NCBI GenBank assembly: GCA_964599285.1 | Contig: CAZREI010000002.1 | Coordinates: 9,955-73,954 of the forward strand | Direction: 5' to 3' | Origin: an uncultured Candidatus Saccharibacteria bacterium | GTDB taxonomy: Bacteria; Patescibacteriota; Minisyncoccia; Minisyncoccales; Staskawiczbacteraceae | DNA length: 64,000 nucleotides | Shown here: positions 11,050-63,180 of the stretch, in pieces | Position numbering within the stretch: the stretch's first letter is position 1 | How the letters are laid out: each line of letters begins with the position of its first letter | Notes under the pieces: generated by a model | Databases searched by the model: none | What the model was told of the DNA's origin: nothing | The model's input: only the letters and a program-made list of their open reading frames with translations | Made by a program: the position numbers and the translations under genes

Positions 11050-11430
11050 CTATATCTTAATAGATATATCTACTCCCGATGGTAAATTCAAGTCTCTTAG
11101 CGCTTCAATGATCTGTTCGTTCGGGCTTAGAATATCAATGATTCTTTTGTGGATTCTCATTTCAAATTGCTCGCGGGCGTTCTTGTGAACAAAGGTTGAT
11201 CGGTTGACCGTATACTTTAAAATTTCCGTTGGCAGTGGCACCGGTCCCACCACTTCAACGCCATGCCGATTGGCAATGTCAATAATCTGGCGCACCGAAT
11301 TGTCTATGATTTTGTGGTCATAGGCTTTCAGCTTGATGCGCAGTTTAGGCAAAGAAGCCACCGTTTGAACTGGCGCTTCTTTGGTTTCAACTTTTTTCCT
11401 GGTAACAGTTTTTTTTGCGACTACCATTAT
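11050..11430 (-). CDS. rpsJ: 30S ribosomal protein S10 with N-terminal extension
   Basis: [29 protein letters not shown] uS10 core. Confidence 0.85.
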
Positions 11431-49289: not shown

Positions 49290-49454
49290 AGTTTTTGGAG
49301 TAATCACGAATATACCAATACGATCAAATATACAAATGTTACAAATATACGAATGTGCTGGATTGCCACGTCGCTTCGCTCCTCGCAATGACGGACAGAA
49401 CGGATTTGTATATTGGTAAAATTTGTATATTGTTCTAAATTTGTATATTCGTGA

Positions 49455-50117
49455 TTACTCCCTAATTAGTTGGTATTCTTTGTTAAAAATCTTTTTGGAA
49501 ATAATAAAAATACTATAGGTGATAAAGGGCGCGGCAAAGACATCTATGGAATAATGCATGTGGGCCAAAATCATGGTGACGCCAAAAATGCCGGCGGCGA
49601 CAAAAAAGAAGTTTCTCCAAAGGGCTTCTTTCCAAAAAATCAGGCCAAATAAAAATGGCGCGCCCACGTGTCCCGAAAAGAAAAAATCATTTTTGGCATT
49701 GTATAAAAAATCGTAAATACTGAAACCAACGCCCTGGGCGTTTAAGGTGATTTGATGAAGGCTGACTCCCAAGTGCGTCAAGCTGATAAAAAAGGACCTG
49801 ACAATAATAAAAAATGCCAAAGATTTAATAGAAAAAAGCAGGTAGCGGGGCTGGATGGCGCAGAGCATCATAACGACAAAAGACAGTATCAGCGCGCCTT
49901 GCACAATGAAAAAATCTAAATTAATGGTGGGCAGGTTGTCCAATAATAAATCCCCCACGTAGGTTACCTGCGCGTGATGGTCAACATAATTGTAGGCAAA
50001 ATGCTGCACGAGCAAAGCGGCCGCCAATAGCGCCACGGCACCCAAGAACAACAAAAACGTATCCTTTTTCCAAAAATGCGTATGGCGCAAATATATTTTT
50101 TCTATGTAGCTATTCAT
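49455..50117 (-). CDS. PAP2-family membrane phosphatase
   Basis: SGH and HMHYSIDV motifs. Confidence 0.7.
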   Translation of the reverse strand: MNSYIEKIYLRHTHFWKKDTFLLFLGAVALLAAALLVQHFAYNYVDHHAQVTYVGDLLLDNLPTINLDFFIVQGALILSFVVMMLCAIQPRYLLFSIKSLAFFIIVRSFFISLTHLGVSLHQITLNAQGVGFSIYDFLYNAKNDFFFSGHVGAPFLFGLIFWKEALWRNFFFVAAGIFGVTMILAHMHYSIDVFAAPFITYSIFIISKKIFNKEYQLIRE

Positions 50118-50658
50118 ACCTTTCCCTGCGGAATTTATAAAACACTAAAAAAATAATCACTAAGGCAAAAGCGGTCAGCGCCATCATAGGAATGGTCACG
50201 TAGCCAAACTCAAATACGTAGCGCTTAATACAGGAAACTTGCACACCCCCGCGCAGGCAAAACACGTTCAATCCCCCATTATAGTAATAAATATAATTGT
50301 GATACAGTGACACCAAAAATCCCAAGCCCGCGAGCGCCAATCCATAGTCAGCCATGTGTCGGTCTTTTTTTACTAGCGCCATGCCCAACACTACCACCAA
50401 AGGATACATGAAAATCCGTTGAAACCAACACAGTTCGCAGGGAGGAAAACCGATTACGTTTGAATAAAAAAGGCTACCGGCTACTGAAATCAAACTGACC
50501 AAAAATGCTAATATCAATCCGCGACGCTCCACAAATTCCACCAAGGAAAACTGCTTTTTTTTAAAAAACAAAAGATAGATAATCGCCAAAACAATGCCAA
50601 CCTGGCTTAAAATTATCCCCAAAGAAAAAATGGTATTGGTAGCTGAAAGCAATGTCAT
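50110..50658 (-). CDS. DsbB/BdbC-family disulfide oxidoreductase
   Basis: PPCELCWFQRIFMYP. Confidence 0.7.
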   Translation of the reverse strand: MTLLSATNTIFSLGIILSQVGIVLAIIYLLFFKKKQFSLVEFVERRGLILAFLVSLISVAGSLFYSNVIGFPPCELCWFQRIFMYPLVVVLGMALVKKDRHMADYGLALAGLGFLVSLYHNYIYYYNGGLNVFCLRGGVQVSCIKRYVFEFGYVTIPMMALTAFALVIIFLVFYKFRRERYE

Positions 50659-50659
50659 G

Positions 50660-51046
50660 TTATTTGGGCAAGGCGCAGCCGGATTTTTGCGCCAGTTCCT
50701 GCAAACTTAATTCGCCCTCTTGTTTTGAATCGTCGGGTAGTTTCCAGGTTGGGTAACCTTCAATTTTTTGATCAGTGCATACCGCGAGCTCTCCGTTGCT
50801 ATCGGGCGTTGAGCACTCAACATAGGGAAGGTACTTTGCTGATTTTCCAAACAGTGACTTTTGGTCCTGGCAGTGCGGACACCAAAAAGCTCCGTACATT
50901 TTCAGTCCCTTGCTGTCAAGGCATTTGGCAAAATCATCCAGCTTGCCCGGCCCCTGGTCTTTTGCCCACAGAAAATAAAATAATCCGGCAACAACCAGCA
51001 AGGCTCCAATGATAATTAACAGGGTATTTTTCACTTTTGAATCCAT
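50660..51046 (-). CDS. membrane-anchored thioredoxin-fold thiol:disulfide oxidoreductase
   Basis: WCPHC. Confidence 0.7.
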   Translation of the reverse strand: MDSKVKNTLLIIIGALLVVAGLFYFLWAKDQGPGKLDDFAKCLDSKGLKMYGAFWCPHCQDQKSLFGKSAKYLPYVECSTPDSNGELAVCTDQKIEGYPTWKLPDDSKQEGELSLQELAQKSGCALPK

Positions 51047-51179
51047 GTAGTTTTTAGTTTTAGGTTCCGGCCGCGTCGCCCGCGGGCGACACGGCCTGTT
51101 AGTTTAGGTTTTTTTGGTTGTTAGTTTTAAACTGGAAACTTTCTAAACTTAAACTTTAAACTTAAAACTGATAACTATT

Positions 51180-51947
51180 TTAGATGAGACTCATCTGATT
51201 TTTCAATGACTCATTACTGATCAGTCTCCGATAAGCGCAATGCTGGCAATCCGGATTTGACGGTGGAATATTGTCCGAATCCAAACACTTTTTAATATTC
51301 ATAATGGCTTGGTCAACCCACGCGCTGTTTCCCTGATACGGAATAATAGACGTTTCAAATTCCAATTTGCCGCCAAACCCGGGCCGATTGCGCGACGCGT
51401 TGGCAAACAAGAAATAACCGACATCAGAAACAGAAAATCCAAGCCTTGCAAAAATCCACTGATACACTTCCATTTGCCTTTTATACCCTATTTTGTACTG
51501 GCTGTCCAACGATATGGGATAATCCGTGCTGGTGGATTTGTAATCCACAATGTGTAGCGCCCCAGTTTTTTGATCCGCCCAAATATCGTCCACAATGCCG
51601 CAGATGTTCAAATTGGTTTCTTTGTGCAACACGCAGGCTCCTAATTTTTTATTGTTGTCATCGCGCCAGATAGCAAAATCGGGATGGTAAAACGGAATAG
51701 CATCAATGCCATATTTTTGCATCAGCGGGTGCGACTTTTTTTGCTCGCGCAGCAGGTCAAACTCATTTTTCAAAAGCGCGTCAACGGCGCTGTTGAGCGA
51801 CCAGCCGGGCATATCGGGCCGCACAATCCCCAACCGCCGGTCCAACCAAAAGCACTGCGGGCATTCCAAAAAAAAGTCAATTTTTGAGCGGCTGACGTTG
51901 AATGGCTCTTTGGATGTCGGATTATAAAGATTGGTTCTGCGCTTTTG
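51180..51947 (-). CDS. PD-(D/E)xK nuclease, Cas4/RecB-like, with Cys cluster
   Basis: DYKST motif; CPQC...CQHC. Confidence 0.55.
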   Translation of the reverse strand, partial: QKRRTNLYNPTSKEPFNVSRSKIDFFLECPQCFWLDRRLGIVRPDMPGWSLNSAVDALLKNEFDLLREQKKSHPLMQKYGIDAIPFYHPDFAIWRDDNNKKLGACVLHKETNLNICGIVDDIWADQKTGALHIVDYKSTSTDYPISLDSQYKIGYKRQMEVYQWIFARLGFSVSDVGYFLFANASRNRPGFGGKLEFETSIIPYQGNSAWVDQAIMNIKKCLDSDNIPPSNPDCQHCAYRRLISNESLKNQMSLI

Positions 51948-51959
51948 CATAAATATGGC

Positions 51960-52095
51960 GACGCTAATTCCCAAGTCCCCAATTACCAATTCCCAATGAA
52001 ATGCTAAAAATCTTAATGCCCAAACCTGTTTTGGAATTTAGGATTTAGGATTTTCATTGGGAATTGGATATTGGGAATTGGAAATTAAGACCAGC
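51960..52095. repeat. family P repeat (gggaattgg/ccaattccc words)
   Basis: Related 53465-53530 and intragenic 38920-38962. Confidence 0.7.
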
Positions 52096-52098
52096 AGG

Positions 52099-52575
52099 TT
52101 ACGCGCTTCCGATGAGCATTCCCGCGATGGCGACCAGCACTCCTCCCACCACTACCTGAGCGACCGACCACAAAAAATTCATTTTAAAGTAGCGGGTGCG
52201 GATGTAGGCGATGACCAGAAGTTCGACTCCCACCACTAAGTATGCCACAGAAAGAGCTCGCCACACGTTGGGCAAAAAAAAGGGAACGGTGTGTAAAAAT
52301 CCGCCAATGAAAGTGGCTAGGCCCGTCACTAATCCCCGACGCACGGGGTGTCCCCTACCAGTGTGGACTCCCGTATCGGAAAGCGCTTCGGCAAACCCCA
52401 TACTGATGGCTGCTCCGATGGCCGCTGATAATCCAATCAGCAAGGTAACGTGGGAAGATTTGGTTGCAAAAGCGGCGGCAAACAGCGGGGCCAAGGTTGA
52501 TACCGATCCGTCCATCAGTCCCAGCAAAGCCGGCTGGATATATTGGAGCACAAAAGCTTTTTCTTTTTGATCCAT
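52099..52575 (-). CDS. VIT1/CCC1-family metal transporter
   Basis: LMDGSVSTLAP...GFAEALSDTG. Confidence 0.6.
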   Translation of the reverse strand: MDQKEKAFVLQYIQPALLGLMDGSVSTLAPLFAAAFATKSSHVTLLIGLSAAIGAAISMGFAEALSDTGVHTGRGHPVRRGLVTGLATFIGGFLHTVPFFLPNVWRALSVAYLVVGVELLVIAYIRTRYFKMNFLWSVAQVVVGGVLVAIAGMLIGSA

Positions 52576-52741
52576 TTTACTATTGTAGCATATTCTTTTT
52601 CAATGAAAAAGAAAGCAAAACAAAAATAGCAAAGTGGCGGCGCCCGAAGGCGCCGCCACTTTTTTCACATCCGCGTTAATCCGCGTTTCGCCAGCTGGCG
52701 AATATCCGCGTAAATCCGCGAATTTTACGAAGTAAAATTGA

Positions 52742-52993
52742 TTAGCAGCACTTGCACATCCCTGCCTTATTGGCCCACTTCATAAAACCTCCAATGATAA
52801 CCAAAATTGGCCAAACAATTGCCGAAAATCCGGCGGTCACAACGCCCAAAGCTTGCAACAAAAAGGTCAAACCAAACAAAATGATCAGCACCGGTACTAC
52901 TTTATGATGAGGGCACTTGCACATATTTTTCATTCCCCCACCCATATTTTGCATATTTTCCATATTTTTTAAATGATAAATGATAATTAACAA
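52742..52993 (-). CDS. small Cys-rich membrane protein
   Basis: CKCPHH...CKCC flanking two TM. Confidence 0.35.
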   Translation of the reverse strand: MLIIIYHLKNMENMQNMGGGMKNMCKCPHHKVVPVLIILFGLTFLLQALGVVTAGFSAIVWPILVIIGGFMKWANKAGMCKCC

Positions 52994-53031
52994 TCTATTA
53001 ATTATCGACCTTTACCTGATCATACCATAGA

Positions 53032-53463
53032 TTAAGACCAAAGTGCCAGCACTGATCCCATAATCAGCAAGGCAAGCAAGTAATACGCGTTCATCAAAAA
53101 CCAAAGTTTCCACGATTTTCCTTCCCAAAGCACCGACCCCAGCGTCACCGGAGCAATAAATCCCAGCCAACTCCAAAACCCCACCATCAGGCCTGCGCCA
53201 ATGCCCGCCGCCTGCAAATAAGCACTGGCAAACACCAAGCTGTGCGCCAACACATATCCCATGACCAGCGACCCGATAAAGGCCAGCAAATATCCTTTCC
53301 ACATGCCGCCCTTGGCTTTGGCAGCGTCCATGTGTTCTTTGGTCATGCCCATCAGCGACATCCAAAGTTTGCCAAATAAGGGCCCGTACCAAACAAAACC
53401 CAGCACCATATTGGCCAGAGCCGCCACCAAAATGGCCCAGTAATTTACGACAACTTGCACCAT
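53032..53463 (-). CDS. DUF1761 membrane protein
   Basis: YGPLFGKLW pattern. Confidence 0.55.
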   Translation of the reverse strand: MVQVVVNYWAILVAALANMVLGFVWYGPLFGKLWMSLMGMTKEHMDAAKAKGGMWKGYLLAFIGSLVMGYVLAHSLVFASAYLQAAGIGAGLMVGFWSWLGFIAPVTLGSVLWEGKSWKLWFLMNAYYLLALLIMGSVLALWS

Positions 53464-53583
53464 ATTTTTAAAAATTCCAAATTACAAGCACCAAATTACA
53501 ATAGCGAATTGGAATTGGGATGCTGCAGTTTGAAAGATTTATATTTTTTCATTATACCACGCTAATCTTGACATGCCTATTGC

Positions 53584-53612
53584 AAGCATTGAAAAAATGG
53601 CTTACTATAAAA
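53584..53612 (+). promoter_or_regulatory. promoter TTGCAA-17-TACTAT upstream of tRNA
   Basis: Spacing consensus. Confidence 0.3.
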
Positions 53613-53646
53613 CTGCGAATAAGGGAAATGGTTCATTAAAAATACA

Positions 53647-54010
53647 TTCCGGTGTAGCTCAGCGGTAGAGCGATTCCCTGTCAACAAGGCAGCGCTCAGA
53701 AGAAACTCTGAGATGAACTTTTCGGGATATCGGTGAACCCTTCGACATTAATTGTCATGGCGATACCGAGGGAACCTAAATAATTTATTTGGGGCTCCGT
53801 AGAGACTAGATACCGAAATGCCTAATGTAGTTATTAGTTAGAAGTTTAAAGTTATAGTTATTAGTTCTTGGTTTAAAACTGAAAACTAAAAAACTTAAAC
53901 TTGGAACTTAAAACCAAAAACTGCCACGGCAAAGATATAGTCCACGCCTTGTGGAAACACAAGAATAAAGTGTAAGGAATGGGTCGTAGGTTCGAATCCT
54001 ACCACCGGAG
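53647..54010 (+). tRNA. tRNA (probably Asn-GUU) split by an about 292-nt group I intron in the anticodon loop
   Basis: 5' half tccggtg-ta-gctcagcggtagagc-g-attcc-ctgt. 3' half taa-ggaat-gggtc-gtagg-ttcgaat-cctac-caccgga-g. Intron has R-like gtagagactaga and exact S element aagatatagtcc, ends in G after exon U, and GCAG can pair CUGU for P1. Confidence 0.65.
53815..53925. repeat. family O repeat copy lodged inside the tRNA intron
   Basis: agttattagtt...aaactgaaaactaaaaaacttaaactt, similar to 38520-38660 and 51050-51180. Confidence 0.6.
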
Positions 54011-54011
54011 C
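53997..54011 (+). repeat. 15-bp direct repeat (tRNA 3' end), left copy
   Basis: tcctaccaccggagc; identical at 58681-58695. Confidence 0.7.
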
Positions 54012-54055
54012 AAGACAGGATTTGCTTCGTACAAATCCTCAATTTTAATTTCATT

Positions 54056-54484
54056 TTGTGCTGTTTTGAGATGAACTTTATGTCGTTGTTGAACTCAAAA
54101 AATATCGTTGCTTTAGGAATCATTGCTTTTTTAGTAGTGAGCATTTGGAGTTTATCTACCATGTGCATAATGGACATGAGCGGCCATATGGTAAATTGCC
54201 CATTCATGAACGGCTCATCAGGTTTTTGCCAGATGACCCTAACCGAGCATATCAGCCTTTGGCAGCAAACCTTTTCTTTGATAAAAATAAAAGATTTGTT
54301 TTTATTGTCTTTGCTGGTTTTTCTTTTTTCTGTTTTAGGTGCTGCGATCAGAAAAACCTACTACCAGTTAGAATCTCAGCCGTTTCGTCACTATTTTTAT
54401 AGGTATCGACCGGAAATAAAATTATTTAACCATCTGGAGCTGGCTTTTTCAGACGGCCTCATCCACTCAAAAATCTACGCTTAA
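54056..54484 (+). CDS. Cys/Met/His-rich membrane protein
   Basis: MSGHMVNCPFMNGSSGFCQM; start uncertain. Confidence 0.4.
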   Translation: MCCFEMNFMSLLNSKNIVALGIIAFLVVSIWSLSTMCIMDMSGHMVNCPFMNGSSGFCQMTLTEHISLWQQTFSLIKIKDLFLLSLLVFLFSVLGAAIRKTYYQLESQPFRHYFYRYRPEIKLFNHLELAFSDGLIHSKIYA

Positions 54485-54612
54485 TATTCGAAGCTGCCTT
54501 TTGTTTTTGTCAGCTCTCTTTACATACTAACTTTCATTGCGAAAGATTATTGTAAAAGAGAGCTGTAAGGCAGTTTTTTGTTAAACGTTTTCAGGGTAAA
54601 GTTAATCAAAAC

Positions 54613-55656
54613 ATGAATAAGGAACAGACCTATTTTATCAAAGGCATGCATTGCTCGGCCTGCGAAATACTCATCGAAAAAAAGCTCCTGGCAATTCCCG
54701 GGGTGAAATCCGTTGATGCTTCCCTATCCAAGGGAGAAGCGATAATTGAATACGATGGAGAAAAGCCGACAACTGAAACGCTCAACGACATGTTCAGGAA
54801 AGACAATTACACTTTTTCTGAAGATCGGCAGTTAGTAAGTAGCCAAGTTCAAGAGAAAAGCAAAGAATCAATAAATCCAACGCTGCTTGGATTGGCAATA
54901 GCCATGGTCATTGTGACAGGATTTTTGGTGCTGGATCGTCTGGGAATATCGGGGTTGCTCAATATCAGCTCAAAATCTTCGGCCATCACTTTTTTTGGTT
55001 TTGGAATCATAGCCGGCTTGTCCTCCTGTGCCGCGTTGGTAGGAGGTATCGTGCTATCTATGTCAAAGCAATGGCTCCAAATGTATAACTCCCAGCAAAG
55101 CAAAATAAAAAAACTCGAGCCGCACTTACTGTTTAATGTTGGCAGGGTTCTATCTTACGCCGTACTGGGCGGAGCGCTGGGATTGATTGGGGGCAGGCTG
55201 CAAATATCGGTAGGGCTTACTACTACATTGGTCATTGTCATTTCTGTCCTCATGATAGGGTTGGGATTGCAAATGCTCGAAGTAAAAGGGTTTCGGAGAT
55301 TTCAATTTTCAATGCCAAGATTCATTACCCGAGGCATTGCCAACGAAAATAATTTTAAGGGAAAGTATATGCCGTTTGTTATGGGGGCCGCCACCTTTTT
55401 TCTGCCTTGCGGTTTTACCATCACCGCTCAAACGATAGCATTGTTATCGGGAAACGCGTTGCAGGGAGGTTTGATTATGGGGTTTTTTGCCTTGGGAACT
55501 TTGCCCATGCTTTTGCTTATTGGATTATCAAGCGTTGCCTTTTCTTCAAAGCCTCGCTTAGCATTAATCTTCTCAAAAGTTGCCGGGTTCTTGGTGTTGT
55601 TCTTTGCCTTGTATAATATTTACCATCAATTAATACTATTAGGATTAATCAAATAA
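54613..55656 (+). CDS. HMA domain fused to CcdA/DsbD-like membrane domain
   Basis: GMHCSACE metal-binding motif; Cys in TM helices. Confidence 0.6.
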   Translation: MNKEQTYFIKGMHCSACEILIEKKLLAIPGVKSVDASLSKGEAIIEYDGEKPTTETLNDMFRKDNYTFSEDRQLVSSQVQEKSKESINPTLLGLAIAMVIVTGFLVLDRLGISGLLNISSKSSAITFFGFGIIAGLSSCAALVGGIVLSMSKQWLQMYNSQQSKIKKLEPHLLFNVGRVLSYAVLGGALGLIGGRLQISVGLTTTLVIVISVLMIGLGLQMLEVKGFRRFQFSMPRFITRGIANENNFKGKYMPFVMGAATFFLPCGFTITAQTIALLSGNALQGGLIMGFFALGTLPMLLLIGLSSVAFSSKPRLALIFSKVAGFLVLFFALYNIYHQLILLGLIK

Positions 55657-55661
55657 AAATT

Positions 55662-56078
55662 ATGCAAAAAAATAACCTCATTCAGCCGATATTAATTTCA
55701 GTGATCCTGATTTGCGTACTCATTTCAGGATATATTCTTGTAACTTCAAACAAGCAAACTGCAAGCCAGGGCGCGAGCGCCTTGGCACCCATGGTCAATG
55801 GCAAGCAGCTAATCCAAATGACGGTAAATGCGGTAAAATATAATCCCAATTCATTTACCGTAAAAGCCGGCATTCCGGTAAGCTGGCAAATTACTTCATC
55901 GGGCGAACCGGGATGCGATAGCGGAGAGGTAATCGCGCGCGGTTTAACTGATCCGATTTTTTTAAATCCCAATCAGGGGCAAGTTACTATCAAAGAATTC
56001 ACTGCGCAAACTCCAGGCACTTATCAGTTCGGTTGCCCGATGGGTATGGTACTTGGCACCATTGAAGTAGTAAATTAA
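55662..56078 (+). CDS. cupredoxin-like protein
   Basis: GTYQFGCPMGMVLG C-terminal ligand loop. Confidence 0.5.
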   Translation: MQKNNLIQPILISVILICVLISGYILVTSNKQTASQGASALAPMVNGKQLIQMTVNAVKYNPNSFTVKAGIPVSWQITSSGEPGCDSGEVIARGLTDPIFLNPNQGQVTIKEFTAQTPGTYQFGCPMGMVLGTIEVVN

Positions 56079-56090
56079 CATCAAAAATCC

Positions 56091-58394
56091 ATGACTCATA
56101 AAACATATCAAATTAAGGGAATGCATTGCGCTTCTTGCGCGAGCATCATTGAGATGGCTTTTAAGGAAACGGAAGGAGTCGCCTCCGCGCAAGTCAACTA
56201 CGGCACGGAAACCGCCAAAGTTTCTTTTGATCAATCAAAAACAAGTGTGGAAGCGCTTTCAAAGAAAATAGAACCTTATGGCTATTCCATTATCATGCCA
56301 ACGGCGGAAGAAATGGGCATGTCTACTGATGAACACGCCGCTCACACCGGCATCGGGCAATCAAAAAAAGAAAAACTAAAGGAAATTGCGGAGCAAAAAA
56401 CCATGGTCATGTCGGCCATTCCGCTGGCCATTGTCAGTATTTTTGCTATGACTTGGGAAACGCTGGCTCAATTCAATTTAGTGGCGCAGCAGCCGTTTGC
56501 CGTGGCAGAATTTTTTAGTCACCTACTACCGATTATGGCTACCTACGTTTTGTTTGTGGTGGGAAAGCCGTATTTACTCGGCATGTATCGGTTCCTGCGC
56601 TATGGCAAAGCCAATATGGATACATTGATTGGGCTCGGTACTTCAGTCGCTTTCCTGTACAGCTTTATTGTTACTGCGTTCACCAATTCAATGGCTCATA
56701 CTTATTACGATGTCACCATTGTGGTTATTACGTTCATTGCTCTGGGCAAATATCTTGAAGCCCGGGCTAAACTAAAAACAGGAGATGCTATTGAAAAGCT
56801 GCTGAACCTTCAAGCAAAAACGGCCTTAGTGATCCGGGACAGTAAAGAGCAAAAAGTTTCTATTAATGATGTGGTGCATGGGGATTTATTAATAGTAAAA
56901 CCGGGAGGAAGAATTCCCGTTGACGGAACTATTACCCAGGGAACTTCTTTTGTTGACCAAGCCATGATCACCGGCGAGCCCATGCTCGTTGAGAAAAAAT
57001 TGGGAGACCAAGTGGTTGCCGGCACCATCAATACCACTGGCAGCTTCACATTCAAAGCCACAAAAGTTGGGTCTGAAACGTTGCTATCTCATATTGTGAA
57101 AATGGTTCAGGAGGCACAGGGAAGCAAAGCTCCCATCCAGGCCTTGGCCGATAAAATCTCGGGCGTATTTGTGCCGGTAGTACTGGTGATTTCTTTTATT
57201 ACGCTTGGAATATGGCTTACGATTGGAACTCATTACCTAGGTTTTGCTGAAGCATTATCCTTCGGCCTAACTTCGTTTGTGGGAATCTTAGTCATCGCCT
57301 GTCCATGTGCTTTGGGATTGGCAACACCGACGGCAATTATTGTCGGCGTAGGCAAAGGAGCCAAAGAAGGCATTCTCATTAAAGATGCGGCAACGCTGGA
57401 AAAACTTCACAAGGTAAATACCGTGGTTATGGATAAAACCGGGACGATCACCAAAGGAAAAACAGAGCTTACGGACATTAAGAATTATTCCTTCCTTCGC
57501 CAAGGCTTCGGCGGGCAGGCAAAACTGGATGATAAAAAAGTAATATCCATCCTGGCTTCGCTCGAAAAAAATTCAGAGCATCCGATCGCCTCCGCAATCA
57601 CTAACTACGCAAAAGAAAAATCCATTGAAACAATAACGGTAGAAAAATTCGAAATCATCAAAGGCAAGGGGCTCAAAGGAATTGTTGATGGCAAGGAATA
57701 CTTCGCCGGAAATGCAAAACTTATCTTTGATCTAAAAATTCCTTTTGATGCCAAAAGCATTGAAACGGAAACCCGACAAGGGAAAACGCCGGTGATTCTT
57801 GCAACCCAAAAAGAGATCATCGGCGTCGTAATGATTGCTGACGCCATAAAACCAGAAGCAATCGATGCTGTAAAAAATCTGCACAAGATGGGCATTAAAA
57901 TCGTGATGCTTACCGGCGATGATAAAAATACCGCACAGGCAATTGCTAAAGAAGTTGGCATCGATAAAGTGATCTCGGAGGTGTTACCTGAAGATAAACT
58001 CAAAACTATCAAGGAGCTGCAGCAGAAAGGCGCGGTGATTGCCATGGCAGGTGACGGAGTAAATGATGCTCCGGCGCTAGCACAAGCTGACGTCGGCATT
58101 GCCATGGGGACAGGCACAGATGTTGCTATTGAAACCGCTGGCATTACACTTTTGCACGGCGATATTTCAAAGCTGGTCAAAGCGGTGCGCCTTTCAAAAA
58201 TGACGATGCTTGGCATCAAGCAAAATCTCTTCTGGGCGTTTATTTATAACATAGCAGGAATCCCGATCGCCGCCGGCATCTTATATCCATTCTTTGGAAT
58301 ATTGCTTTCACCGGTGTTTGCGGGATTGGCCATGGCATTTTCAAGCGTAAGCGTGGTTGGAAATAGTTTGAGGATTAGAGGGAAGAAATTGTAG
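56091..58394 (+). CDS. copA: Cu+-exporting P1B-type ATPase
   Basis: GMHCASCA, CPC, DKTGT, GDGVNDAP. Confidence 0.95.
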   Translation: MTHKTYQIKGMHCASCASIIEMAFKETEGVASAQVNYGTETAKVSFDQSKTSVEALSKKIEPYGYSIIMPTAEEMGMSTDEHAAHTGIGQSKKEKLKEIAEQKTMVMSAIPLAIVSIFAMTWETLAQFNLVAQQPFAVAEFFSHLLPIMATYVLFVVGKPYLLGMYRFLRYGKANMDTLIGLGTSVAFLYSFIVTAFTNSMAHTYYDVTIVVITFIALGKYLEARAKLKTGDAIEKLLNLQAKTALVIRDSKEQKVSINDVVHGDLLIVKPGGRIPVDGTITQGTSFVDQAMITGEPMLVEKKLGDQVVAGTINTTGSFTFKATKVGSETLLSHIVKMVQEAQGSKAPIQALADKISGVFVPVVLVISFITLGIWLTIGTHYLGFAEALSFGLTSFVGILVIACPCALGLATPTAIIVGVGKGAKEGILIKDAATLEKLHKVNTVVMDKTGTITKGKTELTDIKNYSFLRQGFGGQAKLDDKKVISILASLEKNSEHPIASAITNYAKEKSIETITVEKFEIIKGKGLKGIVDGKEYFAGNAKLIFDLKIPFDAKSIETETRQGKTPVILATQKEIIGVVMIADAIKPEAIDAVKNLHKMGIKIVMLTGDDKNTAQAIAKEVGIDKVISEVLPEDKLKTIKELQQKGAVIAMAGDGVNDAPALAQADVGIAMGTGTDVAIETAGITLLHGDISKLVKAVRLSKMTMLGIKQNLFWAFIYNIAGIPIAAGILYPFFGILLSPVFAGLAMAFSSVSVVGNSLRIRGKKL

Positions 58395-58556
58395 CGGATA
58401 ATTTTTACTCCTCCCTGACCAAAGGCTTCTCCATTTGCATAATATCGGCGTCGGGGAAGCGCAGTAGGTCTTCCCATTTGGTGTTTATGAACTCGTTCCA
58501 CTTCGGGAGCAGTGAAATCAGAACGCCCCTTGCGGGTGTTTTTGATTTCACTTGAT

Positions 58557-58670
58557 TCGTTGAGGTAGGAGTCGAACCTAGGATGGGGTCGGGAAGGAGA
58601 AGTCCTTCCCGTGTAGGAAGCCTTCAAAACCGAGGGTTTTGAAAAAGGATCGAAGTGACGCTGGTTCAAG
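58557..58670 (+). ncRNA. conserved structured RNA motif, copy 2
   Basis: Same blocks as 10953-11046 (reverse complement); preceded by T-loop-like ggagtcgaacc. Confidence 0.4.
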
Positions 58671-58680
58671 TAAAACGGAG

Positions 58681-58695
58681 TCCTACCACCGGAGC
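58681..58695 (+). repeat. 15-bp direct repeat (tRNA 3' end), right copy
   Basis: tcctaccaccggagc. Confidence 0.7.
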
Positions 58696-59060
58696 CATCG
58701 TATACGAATAGAGGCGAGAGCCTCTGTTTTGTTCGTAAAATCGCCTGTTTTTGCCAGTTCTAACCTTAAATACTCTGCTTGTAGGGCAGGATAGCCTTCG
58801 CCGATAGGTTGTAGCCACTCTTTTGGCTCAATAGTTAGATTTTTGTTCTTAATTATGGGCTTTTCTCCCAAGCTCATTAAGATTTCTTTCTTCAATTCTA
58901 ACCCTCTTTCTAAAAACTTGATTCTGGCGTAGGCGGCAAAGTGAAAAGTTTTTTCATTTATCTCAAACCAATGCTCGACTCGGGCTTCGGTTTCTTTTAC
59001 CAGATTTTTTAGCTTGTTTATTTTTGCCGCTAGTAAACCTATATTAAAAGTAAAATAAAG
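58683..59060 (-). pseudogene. C-terminal gene remnant without start codon
   Basis: About 120-codon frame opening directly after a stop; first Met only 70 codons from end. Confidence 0.3.
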
Positions 59061-59107
59061 CCCCCAATCAGTTTCCGTAGAAACCGACTAGGGGCATGTT
59101 GAAAGAA

Positions 59108-59518
59108 CTACCTGATGCTTGAGTTGCTCACGCTACTCAAACTGCTCTCCTCACGAACGTTGTTGATAGCACCGTTGCTATGAACATCGTGAGGCGTGTC
59201 GTTGACTGATCGAAACGGTGTCAGTTTGATGACCACGCCGCTTACGATTGCGGCGATGGCCACGATCACGAACACCGAGACGAAAAGGTCAATGACAACC
59301 CACTGCGAAACAACCACGGGCTGGTAAATCACGACGAGCGTGATCGCCACCCAGTGGCTGGTGCAGTAAGAGCATGACACAAGCTCACCGAGCCAGGTGT
59401 TTTTCTTGGCACTCCATTCCCTTGCGGAAGCGAAGAGCCGAGATTTGGAGGTGGTCACCGAAATCGCCGCTGTCGCCAGAGCGAGAACGATAACCTGATA
59501 CAAGCCGTTCAGATCCAT
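59108..59518 (-). CDS. DUF1360-like membrane protein
   Basis: SCSYCTSHWVA; AAAGGAGG SD; high GC. Confidence 0.5.
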   Translation of the reverse strand: MDLNGLYQVIVLALATAAISVTTSKSRLFASAREWSAKKNTWLGELVSCSYCTSHWVAITLVVIYQPVVVSQWVVIDLFVSVFVIVAIAAIVSGVVIKLTPFRSVNDTPHDVHSNGAINNVREESSLSSVSNSSIR

Positions 59519-59533
59519 TGCGCTACCTCCTTT

Positions 59534-59737
59534 CTAGCAGGTACATCCGCCCTGGGACTTGGACTGTTCGCGACGCATTTGTTCGTTGATGCTGTCGGCC
59601 AGCTTCAGGGCTTTGTCCACCCCGGCCAACACATCGTCAACCTCCGGAACCTGGTCGGAAATGTCAGTCGTCTCAAGAGACGAACTGCCACCTGGACCCG
59701 GCCCTTTGGTTTTCTTGCGGAACCGATCTTGGAGCAT
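59534..59737 (-). CDS. Pup-like small protein ending ...QGGCTC
   Basis: Gly-rich N-terminus; EVDDVLAGVD...KSQGG resembles Pup DEIDDVLEEN...QKGGQ; AAGGAGA SD; directly after ARC stop. Confidence 0.5.
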   Translation of the reverse strand: MLQDRFRKKTKGPGPGGSSSLETTDISDQVPEVDDVLAGVDKALKLADSINEQMRREQSKSQGGCTC

Positions 59738-59749
59738 GGATGTTTCTCC

Positions 59750-61487
59750 TTACGCCTTGGCCTGGCGAAGCTTCTGAATGCCCACGACTTCCTCGCGGAA
59801 ATCATGGACGAAATCAGAGAGTTCGTCGGTGTGGTTGAGGTCACGGTTTTGTTGTTCCACCAGATCCACTGCCACCACCAGATCGTCCTTGCGCATCCCT
59901 TCCGGCTTTTTCTTGGAAAGGTCGCGTTGCAGAGCAATCGAAGTGGCTTGGTCGATGATACTCACGATCATCCCACCGTTCACGATGTGACCGAGGGTGA
60001 AATCGCAGACACCATCTTTCTTCTTGACTTGGTAGAGCACCCGACGAGACGAGAACACCTCGTCACTGCCGAGCTTTGCCAGCTCCTCGCGCGTGTAACC
60101 GTTGTTAAGCGGCACTCGCTTGAGGTTGAGCTGGAAAATGTCCACCGCGCCTTGCGGAGTCGGACGCCCAATCTTGATCTTGCGATCAATGCGCCCGTCA
60201 CGAACCACAGCCGGGTCGAGGATGTCGGAGCGGTTCGTGGCCAGAATGACCAGAGCGCCCGAATCTTCGAGACCGTCCATTTCCGTCAGGAACATGGGAA
60301 CGATCGTGCGTTCCACATCCGAGCTGATGCCCGAACCGCGCTTGGACAAGATCGCGTCGGCTTCGTCGATGAACACCACCGCCGGATAGCCATGCGTTTC
60401 CTTGTGCTTGCGCGCCCGCTGGAAGATTTGACGAACCGTTGCTTCGGCCATACCCACGAAACGATCGAGAATCTCGGGACCCTTGATGTAGATGAATCCC
60501 GCAGACTTCGAGCCGCCGTTGTAGATCTTGGCCAGAGCTGTCGCCGTCGCCTTTCCCAGCATGGTCTTGCCGCATCCCGGAGGGCCATAGAGGAGAATTC
60601 CCTTTACTGGCTTCTTGCCGTAGAACCGGAAAATATCCGGGTTCCTGTGTGGAAGCTCCACGGCTTCGATCATCTGTTTCTTGGCTTCCGCCAAACCACC
60701 GACATCGTTCCAAGTGACGTTCGTTTCAGCCGAAAAGCTGAAGCGTTCGTCGTCTTTCCCGAGGTTGCGGATGATGACGCTGGCCGTTCCGTCAAGCACG
60801 ACGCGGTCGCCCTTTTCGAGCGCCTTGCCGAGCTTGCCGTTGAAAACGACCCGAACCGAAGACTGGTAGTCCACTTCCGAGAACATTTCGTCGATCACGC
60901 GTCGCAGGTAGCCGATGTCACCGCCCAGTTGCGTTGCCGCAACGTCGACGATTTGCATCGTCTCCATAACGATCGTGACCGTGTCGCCAGGGTTGACCTG
61001 TTTGTCCTTCGGCAGAAGGACTTCGAGGAACTTCCCTTCGACGGCGATGAGGGCAGTGTTGCCATAACTAGCAGATGCCTTCTTAGTGTACCATCGTTCG
61101 ACATCTGCACAAAAATCGAGAAACACCTTTCCGTCGTGATCAGTGAAAATCTTGGAGCCCTGAAAACCCGCCACCACATGCTTCTTGGCCTTCATGACAT
61201 GGGAGGTAAGACCCACATCGGGTTTAATCTCAAGCTCATCACCCACAGCGTAACCCCGCAACGTCCTGACGATATTATCCACTTTTTCAGTGCTGCCGTT
61301 CACCATAACAATGGACGAAGGGATTTTTACCTCCCTCTTCACTTCCACCGCCACCACCGTCGCATACGCGAAGGGGGGGGGTAGTGAGCTGTTCGAGCAT
61401 CTCCTTCTGTTCGAGGAGCTTGGCTTTCGCCTGCTCGAGAGCGTCACGGAGCTTCTGGACCTGTTCTTGGACTTCACGTTCGTTCAT
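59750..61487 (-). CDS. proteasome-associated AAA ATPase (ARC/Mpa-like), frameshifted in a C9 run
   Basis: GILLYGPPGCGKT...FIDEADA...ILATNR...RxGRID; N-terminal coiled coil MNEREVQEQVQKLRDALEQAK encoded in the other frame upstream of G9/C9 at 61373-61381. Confidence 0.85.
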
Positions 61488-61774
61488 GACTGACCTCCTG
61501 ACCTGACGTTCGCGGTTTGATCTTCAACGGGATTTTGCAGGCATACGTCAACTGCTCGCAAAACTTTCGCCCCCGCTGGATCGTCAATCGTTCCGATGGC
61601 AAAGTGAACATTCAGTCCCCTTGCCAACTCCAGTCCTCCCCGGACCGAAGCTACGATTAGTTTTTGTCCGTCATGGGAACTGGTCGGATCCTTCACGCGC
61701 ACCTTCCAGACTGTTCGTCCTTTCGATGGCGTGTCGAACCCGACGACGAACCCATTGGTTCTTTTCGGGTTCAT
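61484..61774 (-). CDS. hypothetical protein (96 aa)
   Basis: ATGA overlap with ARC start; no family recognised. Confidence 0.4.
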   Translation of the reverse strand: MNPKRTNGFVVGFDTPSKGRTVWKVRVKDPTSSHDGQKLIVASVRGGLELARGLNVHFAIGTIDDPAGAKVLRAVDVCLQNPVEDQTANVRSGGQS

Positions 61775-61894
61775 GACTGGTTCCTTTCTGAACTAGTGAC
61801 CGATTTACCAAAAGACCGTCAGACCGTTTGACACCTCCTTTTAGTTTTCAAAGACCATTCCTAATGATCTCCAAGGCACATACCTTGAGATACC

Positions 61895-61925
61895 CCATCT
61901 TATCACATTGACAGTTTTATGTCAA
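61895..61925 (-). promoter_or_regulatory. promoter TTGACA-17-TAAGAT with palindromic operator ttgacaNNNNNNNtgtcaa
   Basis: On the reverse complement upstream of 61774; palindrome cattgacagttttatgtcaatag. Confidence 0.4.
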
Positions 61926-61930
61926 TAGTT

Positions 61931-61966
61931 TGTAGTAAAATAAAATCCCCTAGCGCTTTGTTTGCA
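61931..61966 (-). terminator. intrinsic terminator after 62003-62437 gene
   Basis: cccctag...ctagggg stem plus T-run on minus strand. Confidence 0.5.
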
Positions 61967-62002
61967 CTAGGGGATACTGTTGCCGACGGCGGTGCCGATG
62001 GC

Positions 62003-62437
62003 CTACGAAAAGATGTGCTCGACCAGTTCGGAGAGCGCCTTCTTGGCCTTGACCCACGGGTCGATGAGGACGACCTGCCAGTCCTTGCGGAGACCGACGT
62101 CGTCGCTGCCGACTTTGGGGAACTCGAGGCGGACGCAGGTCCAGAATGCCTTGTGAATGAGGTCTTCCTCGAGATGAACGGTCGCGTGCTCGCGGATGAT
62201 CTCCTTCTTTTTCTCCTCGGTGATCTTGTCGCCGAGTTCGGGAATCTCCTTCTGTAGCCGGGTGTGCAAAGCCTTCGTTTTCTCCTCGGCGCCCACCATC
62301 ACGACGTAGAGCTTCTTGAGATCGTCGGAAAGAATGCCCACGACTTCTTCGCCTTCCTCTACTCCGTAATCCGGAGACTTCATTCCCTTGAGAGAGACCT
62401 CGGATACCATTCCCATGACCTTCTTGAGAAACAACAT
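62003..62437 (-). CDS. hypothetical protein (144 aa), high GC
   Basis: GGAGG SD; consensus TTGACA-17-TATAAT promoter upstream on minus strand (about 62515-62545). Confidence 0.5.
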   Translation of the reverse strand: MLFLKKVMGMVSEVSLKGMKSPDYGVEEGEEVVGILSDDLKKLYVVMVGAEEKTKALHTRLQKEIPELGDKITEEKKKEIIREHATVHLEEDLIHKAFWTCVRLEFPKVGSDDVGLRKDWQVVLIDPWVKAKKALSELVEHIFS

Positions 62438-62603
62438 GGCAAACCTCCAATGTGTTACTCGAAAACCCTACACCGTGCAGGATTTCAGGGGTAACGAATT
62501 GACGAAATGTTCTGAAAATCATTATATTACAATAGGGTTCTATTGTCAATGGTTTTGGTTTTCTTTGATTAAATTTTAGATTTCCTTGGCTGGTCTGGTA
62601 GGT

Positions 62604-62633
62604 TGACACAGATTTTTATTTTGCTATAATTCC
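62604..62633 (+). promoter_or_regulatory. promoter TTGACA-16-TATAAT facing an ORF-less 400-nt region
   Basis: ttgacacagatttttattttgctataat. Confidence 0.4.
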
Positions 62634-63180
62634 ACTATAAAGCTCTTTGTAATTAACTCCGCTCCGCCTGCAGATGTAACAGCAAATTAGCCTCGGTACC
62701 TGCAGTTCTATGCAAAGATTCTAATATGAGAAATGTAAAAATGCTTATGACCTCCTTAGAATTCAATCTTCTAAAAGACAGTTGTTATTTTCGGAATCAT
62801 TAAATTAGAGGAACGAATGAAGTGCTAAATAGGCGATTTCAAGGATTATTAGAGATGAGTGGAGTTAATTACAGAGAGTTTTTTTAAGTTTTAAACTGGC
62901 GATAAACTTATTGGCCCTACATTAGGAAACTGCTGCAAATACCAAATTTTGATATCATTCCAGTGAGTTCTAATATTGTTTTCTTGCCAGAGCAAATGAA
63001 AATCTCCTTTACGGAGGTTTTTATTTTGCTTTAATGTTATTATTTGTAGAAATAAATTTGACATATTTATATATAAATATTATATATAATACATACAATT
63101 ACATAATATTGCAGGACAAAACTTGACAACAGTACATGATAGAATATATGATTGATTCAAATACATAAAAGCATATCATT

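Follow-up and report, generated by a model that had tools for sequence, protein, structure and literature searches.

Cis-mobilisable elements (CIMEs) of Streptococcus thermophilus are flanked by att sites and carry no integrase, and the composite islands of SCCmec and pseudo-SCC elements sit at rlmH (orfX). Islands in tRNA genes are defined by a regenerated tDNA and a displaced 3′ fragment in direct orientation, and Islander requires an integrase inside the island (Hudson, Lau & Williams 2015, PMC4383910). Tycheposons of Prochlorococcus occur as tandem arrays in which integrases are fragmented and additional partial tRNAs appear (10.1101/2020.12.28.424599). We analyzed a 64-kb stretch of CPR/Parcubacteria DNA (the window), whose features of interest are listed in Table 1. 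The locus is best read as a tRNA-Asn(GUU) integration hot spot that carries a tandem array of acquired DNA, where an integrase-less copper islet probably arrived via site-specific recombination, later than a now-decayed element with a large serine recombinase (LSR) at the same tRNA-Asn. The islet itself is an ordinary type of gene-acquisition scar; the intron in the tRNA and an LSR family that seems to target tRNA ends are its less ordinary neighbours.

The islet shares with the islands found by Islander an intact tRNA at one end and a direct displaced 3′ tRNA fragment at the other, an identity block running from the T-loop/T-stem to the 3′ end, adaptive metal-resistance cargo, and the occurrence of tandem arrays at one tRNA. 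It differs from them in having no integrase (tyrosine recombinase) inside; the sole recombinase trace at the locus is of the serine type and belongs to the neighbouring element. Also unlike those islands, it has a target tRNA with a group I intron, is very small (4.7 kb), and lacks atypical composition. Tycheposon arrays offer a similar picture of a streamlined genome in which successive tRNA-proximal integrations push older elements outward and leave partial tRNAs between units, with fragmented integrases and nutrient or metal cargo, but they belong to a different phylum, and the decayed integrase of the window is an LSR with an ORF that overlaps the tRNA. As in CIMEs, att-type repeats flank a cargo without recombination genes, and an element with an integrase gene occupies the same site in tandem, although mobilisation in trans is only putative for the islet and the neighbouring integrase gene is a pseudogene. 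The likeness to SCCmec and pseudo-SCC lies in the LSR system, the conserved gene's 3′ end as target, the direct repeats of ~15–18 bp that bound each cassette, and recombinase-less cassettes in tandem with recombinase-bearing ones; here, however, a tRNA takes the place of the protein gene as target, and LSR and cop cassette are linked by position only.

Table 1. Features at the tRNA-Asn(GUU) locus, in window coordinates.
Feature	Position	Strand	Remarks
tRNA-Asn(GUU) exon 1	53648..53681	+	acceptor 5′ strand, D arm, anticodon stem 5′ strand, loop C32-U35; direct reading
Predicted group I intron, 291 nt	53682..53972	+	between anticodon-loop positions 35 and 36
tRNA-Asn(GUU) exon 2	53973..54010	+	U36 to discriminator G73; CCA not encoded (GCAAG)
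Copper-export islet	53997-58695		bounded by direct repeats; 4.7-kb block (4.67 kb inserted) at tRNA-Asn 3′ end
Direct repeat copy 1 (attL-like core)	53997..54011	+	within functional tRNA
Hairpin and T-run, terminator-like	54017..54039	+	directly after tRNA; first bases of inserted segment
Small membrane ORF, Cys/Met/His-rich stretch (MCIMDMSGHMVNCPFMNGSSGFCQM)	54071..54484	+	alternative start TTG 54056
HMA (CxxC)-DsbD_2/CcdA-type thiol-disulfide transporter fusion	54613..55656	+	Pfam PF00403 5.6e-13, PF13386 6.8e-31
Membrane-anchored cupredoxin-like protein	55662..56078	+	C-terminal GCPMGM; PF13473 (Cupredoxin_1) 1.7e-7, above cutoff
CopA, P1B-1 Cu(I)-exporting ATPase	56091..58394	+	E1-E2_ATPase/HMA/Hydrolase domains
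Nested hairpin then T-run, terminator-like	58511..58552	+	after copA; inverted repeat I19, fold
Non-coding right end of insert	58564..58660	-	inverted T-arm-like copy (58564-58580) and ~60-nt two-hairpin element
Direct repeat copy 2 (15 nt) and CA, attR-like	58681..58697	+	displaced original tRNA-Asn 3′ end
5′-truncated LSR pseudogene, last ~120 codons	58683..59054	-	outside repeats; TAG stop within repeat copy 2
Strong terminator hairpin	59095-59060		at edge of foreign block
Compositionally foreign block	59100..62650	-	GC 0.533; DUF1360 protein, proteasome-ATPase-like AAA protein, small ORFs; truncates LSR gene

Neither ARAGORN nor Rfam at its gathering score called a tRNA on the unspliced locus, because the group I intron interrupts the gene. 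When 53681 is joined to 53973, ARAGORN reports tRNA-Asn(gtt), so that a complete tRNA stands at the islet boundary. Exon 1 is nearly identical to the intron-less tRNA-Asn(gtt) genes of three other loci (L011, L015 and L016), and the spliced anticodon loop is identical to that of intron-less alleles, the precise restoration of the gene that marks a group I intron. At the splice sites (...CCCTGT/CAAC...AAAGTG/TAAGG, slashes marking the cuts) a U precedes the 5′ site and the intron ends in G. Rfam RF00028 matches the sequence at 43.4 bits, short of its gathering score (50), with E = 1e-9 when 651 nt were searched. Homologous introns at the same tRNA site reach 90.8 bits in L012 and 72.4 bits in L013. 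The sequence is a predicted self-splicing group I intron.

Bacterial group I introns in anticodon loops include those of tRNA-Leu(UAA) in cyanobacteria, tRNA-Ile in Azoarcus and tRNA-Arg in Agrobacterium. Like these, the present intron would be a small anticodon-loop ribozyme of group I, with a U at the 5′ splice site and a terminal G, and its relatives comprise both intron-plus and intron-less alleles. It is unlike them in its host tRNA, Asn(GUU), in its insertion between positions 35 and 36, and in the CPR lineage that carries it; the literature searched yielded no description of a tRNA-Asn(GUU) intron of such a site in CPR.

The 15-mer TCCTACCACCGGAGC occurs exactly twice in the window, both times on the plus strand, and no further copy with up to two mismatches was found there. 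None of 100 dinucleotide shuffles yielded two matches; the uniqueness of the 15-mer refers to the 64-kb window and about 100 fetched loci. Copy 1 comprises T-loop position 60, the 3′ strands of the T-stem and acceptor, the discriminator G and the C of the non-encoded CCA, and the CA that follows copy 2 completes an encoded CCA. Extended leftward, the repeat is identical at 17 of 18 positions (GA[A/G]TCCTACCACCGGAGC); beyond that, the resemblance to the tRNA does not reach significance (shuffle P = 0.24). At the far boundary there is consequently a displaced 3′ tRNA fragment (15/15, or 17/18 when extended) in direct orientation, as the definition of tDNA islands has it. These observations support the view that the second 15-mer is a displaced att-type tRNA 3′ end rather than a chance repeat, and that the copper cluster is an inserted segment without an integrase.

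The cargo is plausibly a copper-handling operon. CopA scores 607.5 bits against TIGR01511 (cutoff 397) and 654 bits against NF007952, under the equivalog cutoff of the latter, and carries the motifs CxxC, TGE, CPC404, DKTGT448, SEHP495, GDGVND, YN719 and MAFSS748 (MxxSS), so that both a subfamily model above its cutoff and the CPC/YN/MxxSS metal-site motifs place it in P1B-1. The small membrane ORF has no family match and no relative among 80 cop loci. Judged from domains only, CopA would export Cu(I) from the cytoplasm, the HMA-CcdA fusion would carry reducing equivalents across the membrane and possibly sense or bind Cu, and the anchored cupredoxin-like protein and the Cys/Met-rich membrane protein would bind Cu outside the cytoplasm. 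No recombinase domain was found in the ORFs between the repeats by Pfam, PHROGs and NCBIfam scans or by tblastn with LSRs; att repeats at both ends with no recombination genes inside are what distinguishes CIMEs and pseudo-SCC elements. The GC content of the insert is 0.434 against 0.414 in the host, and its tetranucleotide correlation (r = 0.906) falls at the 10th percentile of host chunks. The ~60-nt two-hairpin element of its right end recurs at window 10960-11030, with a 21-nt exact hairpin common to the insert and window 10973-10993. Because the composition is host-like and a small repeated element is common to the host part, nothing here indicates a recent foreign origin; the donor may have been a close relative, or the insertion may be old. 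The cassette ends bear no resemblance to those of any other locus compared, including L081 discussed below.

An earlier note on this DNA had described a copper cluster bracketed by a 15-nt tRNA-end repeat, with this cargo, no integrase between the repeats and host-like GC, and all four points agree with the results above. It had also assigned the first copy of the 15-mer correctly to a tRNA 3′ end, although the gene needs to be redescribed as a tRNA-Asn split by a group I intron.

The same note pointed to a start-less gene fragment (58683-59060) as the only nearby remnant. The fragment is indeed a recombinase remnant, but of another element. In tblastn searches with LSRs the window was matched only at 59054-58677, and the remnant aligns to residues 418-537 of the full-length LSR of L011 (60% identity, 4e-43), which has Resolvase (PF00239), Recombinase (PF07508) and Zn_ribbon_recom (PF13408) domains; longer relatives of the remnant have PF07508 and PF13408. 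Since only the part homologous to residues 418-537 of this 538-aa relative is present, the window copy is a pseudogene remnant, short of the full LSR architecture of Resolvase, Recombinase, zinc ribbon and coiled coil in one protein. The LSRs of L011 and L013 are full-length (538 and 535 aa) and end in ...RWLRW* inside tRNA-Asn, as the window remnant does. Among the 77 family members in which an anchor can be recognised, about 54 terminate in translated antisense tRNA, so a position flush against the tRNA is the normal state of the family. Situated outside the repeats, the remnant is part of an older, adjacent element that is normally flush against the tRNA, and it is therefore not the leftover integrase of the copper element.

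This normal state was also found without the islet. A search for the predicted uninterrupted junction GGTTCGAATCCTACCACCGGAGCCANCGTNNACGAA retrieved six metagenome contigs in which a complete tRNA-Asn with CCA and with the 3′ end found in the window (GGTTCGAA-TCCTACCACCGGAGCCA) is joined directly to the end of an LSR gene, which is full-length in two of them. Behind the tRNA these contigs have the conserved sequence found after the second 15-mer of the window, and the sole difference at the junction is the 4.67 kb inserted within the last 15 nt of the tRNA. The same conserved DNA follows a whole tRNA in L003 (tRNA-Trp) and L009 (tRNA-Asn). The arrangement that the earlier note expected of an empty site, the tRNA followed by the flank from 58696 onward, thus exists, but the six junctions are analogous rather than orthologous, because they come from other species in which synteny is lacking upstream of the tRNA. 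The searches brought up no orthologous empty site, and the predicted junction of tRNA-Asn with CCA and LSR end was not found in 185,579 species genomes.

Judging from these relatives, an LSR element would have integrated at the extreme 3′ end of tRNA-Asn, producing the junction tRNA...GGAGCCA/TCGTATACGAA..., with the LSR ORF running antisense into the tRNA and its stop inside it. A 4.67-kb circular DNA bearing a copy of the last 15–18 nt of tRNA-Asn (reconstructed attP ...AACGGAG-TCCTACCACCGGAGC-AAGACAGG...) would subsequently have recombined site-specifically with the tRNA within the 15-nt identity. The rebuilt tRNA would have taken its 3′ end from the element, and CAA and a hairpin terminator now come next. 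Its original 3′ end would have moved 4.7 kb downstream together with the CCA and LSR gene end to which it was, and still is, joined. The LSR gene was later cut back, at the border of the 55%-GC foreign block, to its final ~120 codons. The insert could be a non-autonomous cassette moved by an enzyme in trans, or selected cargo that survived the loss of a larger element's mobility genes. A bolder proposal, which we regard as doubtful, is that the cassette was moved in trans by a CPR-wide LSR family targeting tRNA 3′ ends, the recombinase having its stop inside the tRNA and exchanging its C-terminal tail on integration.

The geometry of the islet is not unique to the window. In L081, an unrelated Gracilibacteria MAG, tRNA-Arg(GCG) is followed by csoR-like, copA, HMA-dsbD and cupredoxin-like genes and then by an exact 20-nt repeat of the tRNA end. 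This cassette is flanked by housekeeping genes, has no recombinase within 20 kb, and is an independent parallel of the window islet. More generally, a same-strand tRNA lies at most 1.5 kb upstream in 13 of 71 CPR cop clusters, compared with 4.4% expected (~4-fold enrichment, P~1e-5), and the tRNAs concerned represent eight tRNA species with ten anticodons. L056 is a marginal further case of the kind seen in L081.

The cop genes might instead be cargo of the LSR element, in a single composite element whose present order resulted from rearrangement or from a tandem dimer followed by deletion. Cop genes do occur near LSR genes in other CPR (tRNA-Gln/LSR...copA in L053, tRNA-Gln/cop/LSR in L028, and in L022 and L037), and the att site of the LSR overlaps the end of its own ORF, so that Y-repeat-LSR could in principle be an unrecombined attP. 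We consider this unlikely, however, as the deletion must end exactly at the repeat boundary beside the tRNA, the conserved non-tRNA tails of the LSRs (..DDVRT..) are not matched anywhere in the window to the left of copy 2, the repeat of 15–18 nt exceeds the ~9 nt of identity (the WLR codons) implied between an unintegrated LSR and the tRNA, and the L081 cassette has repeats but no LSR.

The two events could also have taken place in reverse order, with the cop cassette integrating first and leaving a 15-nt fragment with CCA into which, rather than into the functional tRNA, the LSR element later integrated. The LSR adjoins a complete tRNA in every relative examined, and this order requires the displaced fragment to have retained or gained an encoded CCA that is absent from the present functional copy. 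Although the resulting structure would be identical and GAGTCCTACCACCGGAGCCA (17/18 identity to the tRNA) could largely satisfy an LSR half-site of ~16–20 bp, this order appears distinctly improbable; LSR before cop is the simpler reading, if an unproven one.

An origin without integration, from two tandem tRNA-Asn genes that flanked a native cop operon and of which the distal one decayed to 18 nt, would suit the host-like composition and the failure to find an orthologous empty site. It is very improbable, for the decay must have stopped by chance at the typical att-core point (T-loop to 3′ end), L081 independently repeats this geometry at another tRNA, cop clusters are unusually frequent downstream of a whole range of tRNAs, and no fetched locus contains duplicate tRNA-Asn genes.

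The right junction (cassette end, repeat copy 2 and fragment) is matched at 0 mismatches by two independent Logan contigs, both beginning exactly at 58590, and the cassette interior was found in three runs; the Logan graph has no branch at 58678-58681 and hence points to no insert-free variant among the samples concerned. That the contig is a chimera joined via the tRNA-Asn 3′ end, with tRNA and cop segment from different genomes, is hardly credible given this twofold confirmation and the composition and 21-nt hairpin common to insert and host, even though the last 25 nt of the tRNA are identical in several species, the Logan assemblies are fragmented (one contig, L002, stops precisely at 53681, inside the tRNA) and no independent assembly supporting the left junction at 54011/54012 was found. 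Even in a chimera, the true genome of the cop segment must place a tRNA-Asn 3′ end before it, so the order of tRNA end, cop genes, tRNA end and LSR stands.

The islet and its neighbours have several implications. The intron adds a bacterial tRNA intron site, and its intron-plus, intron-less and HNH-bearing alleles suit homing studies. The hidden, intron-split tRNA is also a practical warning to annotators: because the intron conceals the tRNA from standard finders, the locus would escape any island search that takes tRNA calls as its starting point. If the LSR family, seen at tRNA-Asn, Trp and Gln, is confirmed to consist of tRNA-specific integrases, tDNA targeting extends to serine recombinases, and the family could supply compact integrases with highly conserved natural targets. 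If it moves the islet in trans, this would be an SCCmec-like cassette system based in tRNA genes, and would contradict the rule that tDNA targets are used by tyrosine recombinases alone. The islet documents adaptive gene gain, in this case of copper export, by ultra-small CPR genomes at tRNA-proximal hot spots, a pattern known from Prochlorococcus and many pathogens and little described in CPR bacteria, where such acquisition leaves tiny recombinase-free islets with clean att scars.

The 15-mer TCCTACCACCGGAGC is present in exactly two copies in the window (53997–54011 and 58681–58695, both on the + strand); no third copy was found in the window with up to two mismatches permitted. No shuffle of the window sequence gave two matches, and chance repetition as the origin of the pair was considered and rejected. 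With one mismatch (GAATCC... versus GAGTCC...) the repeat extends to 18 nt. A gapped leftward extension of the tRNA similarity from the second repeat was rejected (P = 0.24, not above chance), as were a "tRNA-Leu" at 58601–58688, reported by ARAGORN under relaxed settings and judged spurious, and a further pseudo-tRNA suspected at 58560–58600 of the minus strand, which consists of a T-arm-like hairpin without an acceptor partner.

The first copy had been described as the last 15 nt of a tRNA, and direct reading of the sequence together with splice-junction testing identifies this tRNA as tRNA-Asn. Because a group I intron interrupts the gene, it was missed by ARAGORN and at the Rfam gathering score, and across the 64 kb neither default ARAGORN nor Rfam at curated thresholds reported a tRNA. 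When 53681 is spliced to 53973, ARAGORN calls a tRNA-Asn(GUU); the intron ends fit the U/...G/ rule for group I splice sites, and the intron scores 43.4 bits against RF00028, below the gathering score of 50 (E = 1e-9 in a local search). Near-identical exons without the intron (tRNA-Asn(GUU), loop CTGTTAA) are found in three metagenome contigs, while three others (L012, L013 and L014) carry an intron at the same position. The introns of L012 (239 nt) and L013, in which exon 1 was not located, exceed the curated Rfam score with 90.8 and 72.4 bits. Among related CPR contigs we observed intron-less alleles, intron-plus alleles and one allele with an HNH endonuclease ORF (PF01844, 22.8 bits) by the ribozyme core. 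A contig from Logan, a set of independent assemblies of sequencing runs, is identical to window 49432–53681 and terminates on the last base of exon 1; an assembly graph that forks where alleles with and without the intron diverge would give such an end, although this is circumstantial.

The segment between the repeats carries the copper genes that the earlier note had recognized, and domain and motif searches support their assignment. The HMA-DsbD_2 and cupredoxin genes are separated by 5 nt, and the cupredoxin gene and copA by 12 nt. The absence of an integrase from the cluster also held, as Pfam, PHROGs, NCBIfam and tblastn searches detected no recombinase domain between the repeats; an ORF at 58397–58669 had no Pfam, PHROGs or NCBIfam match. 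The composition of the cassette is host-like, as previously stated (GC 0.434 compared to 0.414), with a tetranucleotide correlation of 0.906 that corresponds to the 10th percentile of equal-length host chunks. The nearest CopA relatives (65–73% identity, the best 73%) belong almost all to Patescibacteria, and exact-protein look-ups of CopA, HMA-DsbD, the AAA protein of a neighbouring block and the first cassette ORF returned no record.

Features of the tRNA-Asn locus, with the LSR junctions of two relatives (a slash marks the junction)
Feature	Position	Strand	Description
tRNA-Asn 5' half	53648–53681	+	TCCGGTG TA GCTC AGCGGTA GAGC G ATTCC CTGT
Group I intron	53682–53972	+	291 nt, between anticodon-loop positions 35 and 36
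tRNA-Asn 3' half	53973–54010	+	TAA GGAAT GGGTC GTAGG TTCGAAT CCTAC CACCGGA G
Hairpin with T-run	54017–54039		after tRNA
Membrane ORF		+	137/142 aa; Cys/Met/His-rich stretch; no family match
HMA-DsbD_2 (CcdA-type) fusion		+	second cassette gene
Cupredoxin-like protein		+	third cassette gene; membrane-anchored
CopA		+	fourth cassette gene; full P1B-1 motif set CxxC, TGE, CPC, DKTGT, SEHP, GDGVND, YN, MxxSS
Hairpin with T-run	58511–58552		after copA
5'-truncated LSR pseudogene	58683–59072	-	LSR homology to 59054; family searches and alignment
High-GC block	59100–62650		GC 0.533 (host 0.41); tetranucleotide r = 0.12 with host
Junction, window			...acggagTCCTACCACCGGAGCCA/TCGTATACGAATAGAGG
Junction, L009 (tRNA-Asn)			...GGGAGCCA/GCGTGTACGAACAGAGG
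Junction, L003 (tRNA-Trp)			...CCCTGCCA/TCGTAGACGAACAGAGG

The start-less fragment noticed beside the cluster is a recombinase remnant by homology to large serine recombinases (LSRs), but it lies outside the repeats, from 58683 onward. The fragment matches no Pfam, PHROGs or NCBIfam profile and was identified only through two rounds of homology search. The first returned 39 short hypothetical proteins of Parcubacteria; the second, with one of the longest of these as query, returned 186 proteins, the longer of which are annotated as site-specific recombinases and contain the domains Recombinase (PF07508) and recombinase zinc-ribbon (PF13408). Full-length LSR genes with Resolvase, Recombinase and Zn-ribbon domains were recovered from the metagenome contigs L011 and L013 (538 and 535 aa). 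Since the window ORF aligns only to residues 418–537 of the L011 protein (60% identity, 4e-43) and tblastn detected no other piece of an LSR gene anywhere in the window, its sequence marks it as a 5'-truncated LSR pseudogene. Its stop codon, TAG at 58683–58685, is inside the second 15-mer.

The predicted uninterrupted site for the window is GGTTCGAA-TCCTACCACCGGAGCCA-TCGTATACGAA, and GGTTCGAATCCTACCACCGGAGCCANCGTNNACGAA, used as the query, was absent among species-representative genomes and retrieved six metagenome contigs (L011–L016). Each of the six has an entire tRNA-Asn(GUU) with encoded CCA that abuts the end of an LSR gene, 65–74% identical to window 58678–59019. The locus in the window differs only in having 4.67 kb interposed at T-loop position 59/60, ahead of the tRNA's last 15 nt. 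After its functional tRNA the window reads CAA where the contigs have CCA, which would follow if the insert had supplied the tRNA 3' end. Because the contigs have nothing else in common with the window, they are analogous and not orthologous empty sites. The arrangement that the earlier note proposed to look for, a tRNA joined directly to this flank, is present in these contigs of other species, without shared synteny around it.

Many CPR genomes (including L003, L009, L011–L016 and L053) have members of this LSR family flush with a tRNA gene for Asn, Trp or Gln, and in relatives the LSR gene end overlaps, antisense, a complete tRNA at its 3' end, namely tRNA-Trp (L003/L004) or tRNA-Asn (L009). 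Translating the antisense strand of CCA, acceptor stem and T-loop gives LSR tails such as W-L-P-E-S-D-S-N-R-R-P. An anchor was recognisable in 77 of the family members retrieved, and about 54 of these have tRNA-derived C-terminal tails; 29 display the fixed-geometry signature W-x4-[DE][SL]N, and 25 have a stop three codons past the Trp, like the window copy (WLRW*). Another ~20 of the 77 end in a conserved non-tRNA tail (...DDVRT...Y.PDL), a motif shared by the full-length but distant LSR of a viral contig that is not integrated; the viral collection contained only a distant LSR. By its sequence, this tail looks like the unintegrated form of the LSR. The tRNA-derived tails and the occurrence of the non-tRNA motif on an unintegrated viral contig together imply that the att site overlaps the 3' end of the LSR ORF, with "tRNA...CCA/LSR end" as the usual integrated state.

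The simplest history of the locus is tandem accretion at tRNA-Asn. An LSR element would have arrived first at the tRNA; a cop-bearing circle with a 15–18-nt copy of the tRNA end (in-silico junction ...GTTCAAGTAAAACGGAG-TCCTACCACCGGAGC-AAGACAGGATTTGC...) would then have recombined within that identity at the empty site (in silico ...GTCGTAGGTTCGAA-TCCTACCACCGGAGCCATCGTATACGAAT...), and the LSR gene would have decayed afterwards. Candidates for the insertion of the cassette are a tyrosine integrase acting in trans, an on-board integrase since lost, and SCC-like LSR action. With its 15–18 nt, the repeat exceeds the stretch of roughly 9 nt (WLR codons) in which the tRNA and the unintegrated LSR form would be identical, and a parallel cop locus (L081, below) has no LSR nearby. 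That cassette and remnant stem from a single, rearranged LSR element is unlikely. No third tRNA-end piece that could serve as the distal att of an LSR element is present up to 853 nt past the window, and the fetched parts of L011–L016 showed no second copy. The reverse order of events, with the cassette preceding the LSR element, is distinctly improbable beside the six contigs in which tRNA and LSR are joined. Decay of a duplicated tRNA seems very unlikely as the source of the second repeat. An assembly chimera is hardly credible: two Logan contigs from two runs match window 58590–61861 and 58590–60259 without mismatch, both running from the end of the cassette through the second repeat and the LSR remnant into the high-GC block, and the cupredoxin gene and its neighbours are present in short contigs of three runs, although the assembly look-ups gave no independent confirmation of the left junction; a chimeric join via the conserved tRNA end would leave the inferred structure unchanged, because the cassette still needs a tRNA-Asn 3' end on its left.

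The right end of the cassette has further features. An inverted near-copy of the tRNA-Asn T-arm (GTAGGAGTCGAACCTAG) is located at 58564–58580, ~100 nt left of the second repeat. The two independent Logan contigs (L097 and L098) both start right after it, which suggests that this T-arm-like k-mer is common to a real tRNA elsewhere in the community. The end itself, at 58590–58660 on the minus strand, is one of two copies in the window of a ~60-nt two-hairpin element (TTCAAAACCCTCGGTTTTGAA ... TTCCTACACGG ... second hairpin), for which there is no Rfam family. The other copy (10960–11030, + strand) is flanked by a 21-nt direct repeat, CTATATCTTAATAGA[A/T]ATATC (10929–10949 and about 11050–11071). 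A 21-nt hairpin of the element is exact in both copies, given a flip of the palindromic loop. Apart from a short hairpin, the non-coding cassette ends matched none of ~100 loci.

Parallel cases were found among cop loci of other genomes. In a Gracilibacteria MAG (L081), a tRNA-Arg(GCG) is followed by a CsoR-type repressor gene, copA, HMA-dsbD and a cupredoxin-like gene, and, 4.06 kb downstream of the tRNA, its 3' end recurs as an exact 20-nt repeat; the segment is flanked by rpiB and rpe on one side and by genes for an inositol monophosphatase, UvrB and ATP synthase on the other, with no recombinase seen in 20 kb. Because its gene order and cassette ends differ from those of the window, it is a separate event of the same kind. 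Another locus (L056), with tRNA-Gln, an 18-nt repeat after 127 nt, cop genes and then an 11-nt third piece, may be a marginal third case. Overall, a tRNA on the same strand precedes 13 of 71 cop clusters by no more than 1.5 kb, where the tRNA density of these loci predicts 4.4% (binomial P of about 1e-5, only indicative as the loci are phylogenetically non-independent); these tRNAs represent eight species and ten anticodons. In six CPR loci (L030, L031, L034, L056, L059 and L086) a 13–24-nt copy of the tRNA 3' end lies only 127–219 nt downstream of the tRNA; such copies may have been left behind by elements that were excised or decayed, or may be miniature inserts. Locus L017, whose CopA is the closest (73%), has its cop genes between tRNA-Ser(gct) and tRNA-Ser(gga) (6510–6608 and 15643–15738), which share their last 10 nt (including CCA) and 16 of 17 nt of downstream flank (GACACTCTAA[G/A]GAGAC), with a further CTCTCCGCCA piece 30 nt beyond one of them.

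The 3.5-kb high-GC block directly past the LSR remnant carries genes for a DUF1360 protein and for an AAA protein of proteasome-ATPase/ARC-like type (302 bits to TIGR03689, a score below cutoff); the block was probably acquired horizontally, in a separate event, from a donor of high GC. Its strong terminator hairpin (59095–59060) is exactly at the end of the LSR homology, and the LSR gene was therefore truncated by the arrival of the block or by an associated deletion. A 219-aa ORF at 61950–62609 has a GC3 of 0.32 in a stretch of 0.52 GC and is probably not the real frame. Just upstream of the tRNA, VIT1 and DUF1761 (window 51600–53460), which belong to a DsbB-thioredoxin-PD(D/E)XK-VIT1-DUF1761 block at window 49455–53463, have GC3 values of 0.57–0.64 compared to about 0.4–0.47 in typical window genes. 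In L053 and L062, too, a DUF1761 gene is found beside tRNA-Gln and LSR or cop genes. It is possible that the upstream flank of the tRNA is itself part of a variable region.

Islands in tDNA are defined by a regenerated tDNA and a displaced 3' fragment (PMC4383910), a description that the islet fits except for the on-board integrase, which it lacks, and among tycheposons there are arrays that contain partial tRNAs and fragmented integrases (10.1101/2020.12.28.424599). The islet itself is of a kind already known. Two by-products are less ordinary as far as a limited literature search can tell. Group I introns in tRNA-Asn(GUU), such as the one beside the islet, were not found described in it, CPR included, and neither were LSRs targeting tRNA genes; the literature searched states that tDNA targeting by serine recombinases is not known. 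The LSR family flush against tRNA genes implies that serine recombinases would be able to target tDNA.
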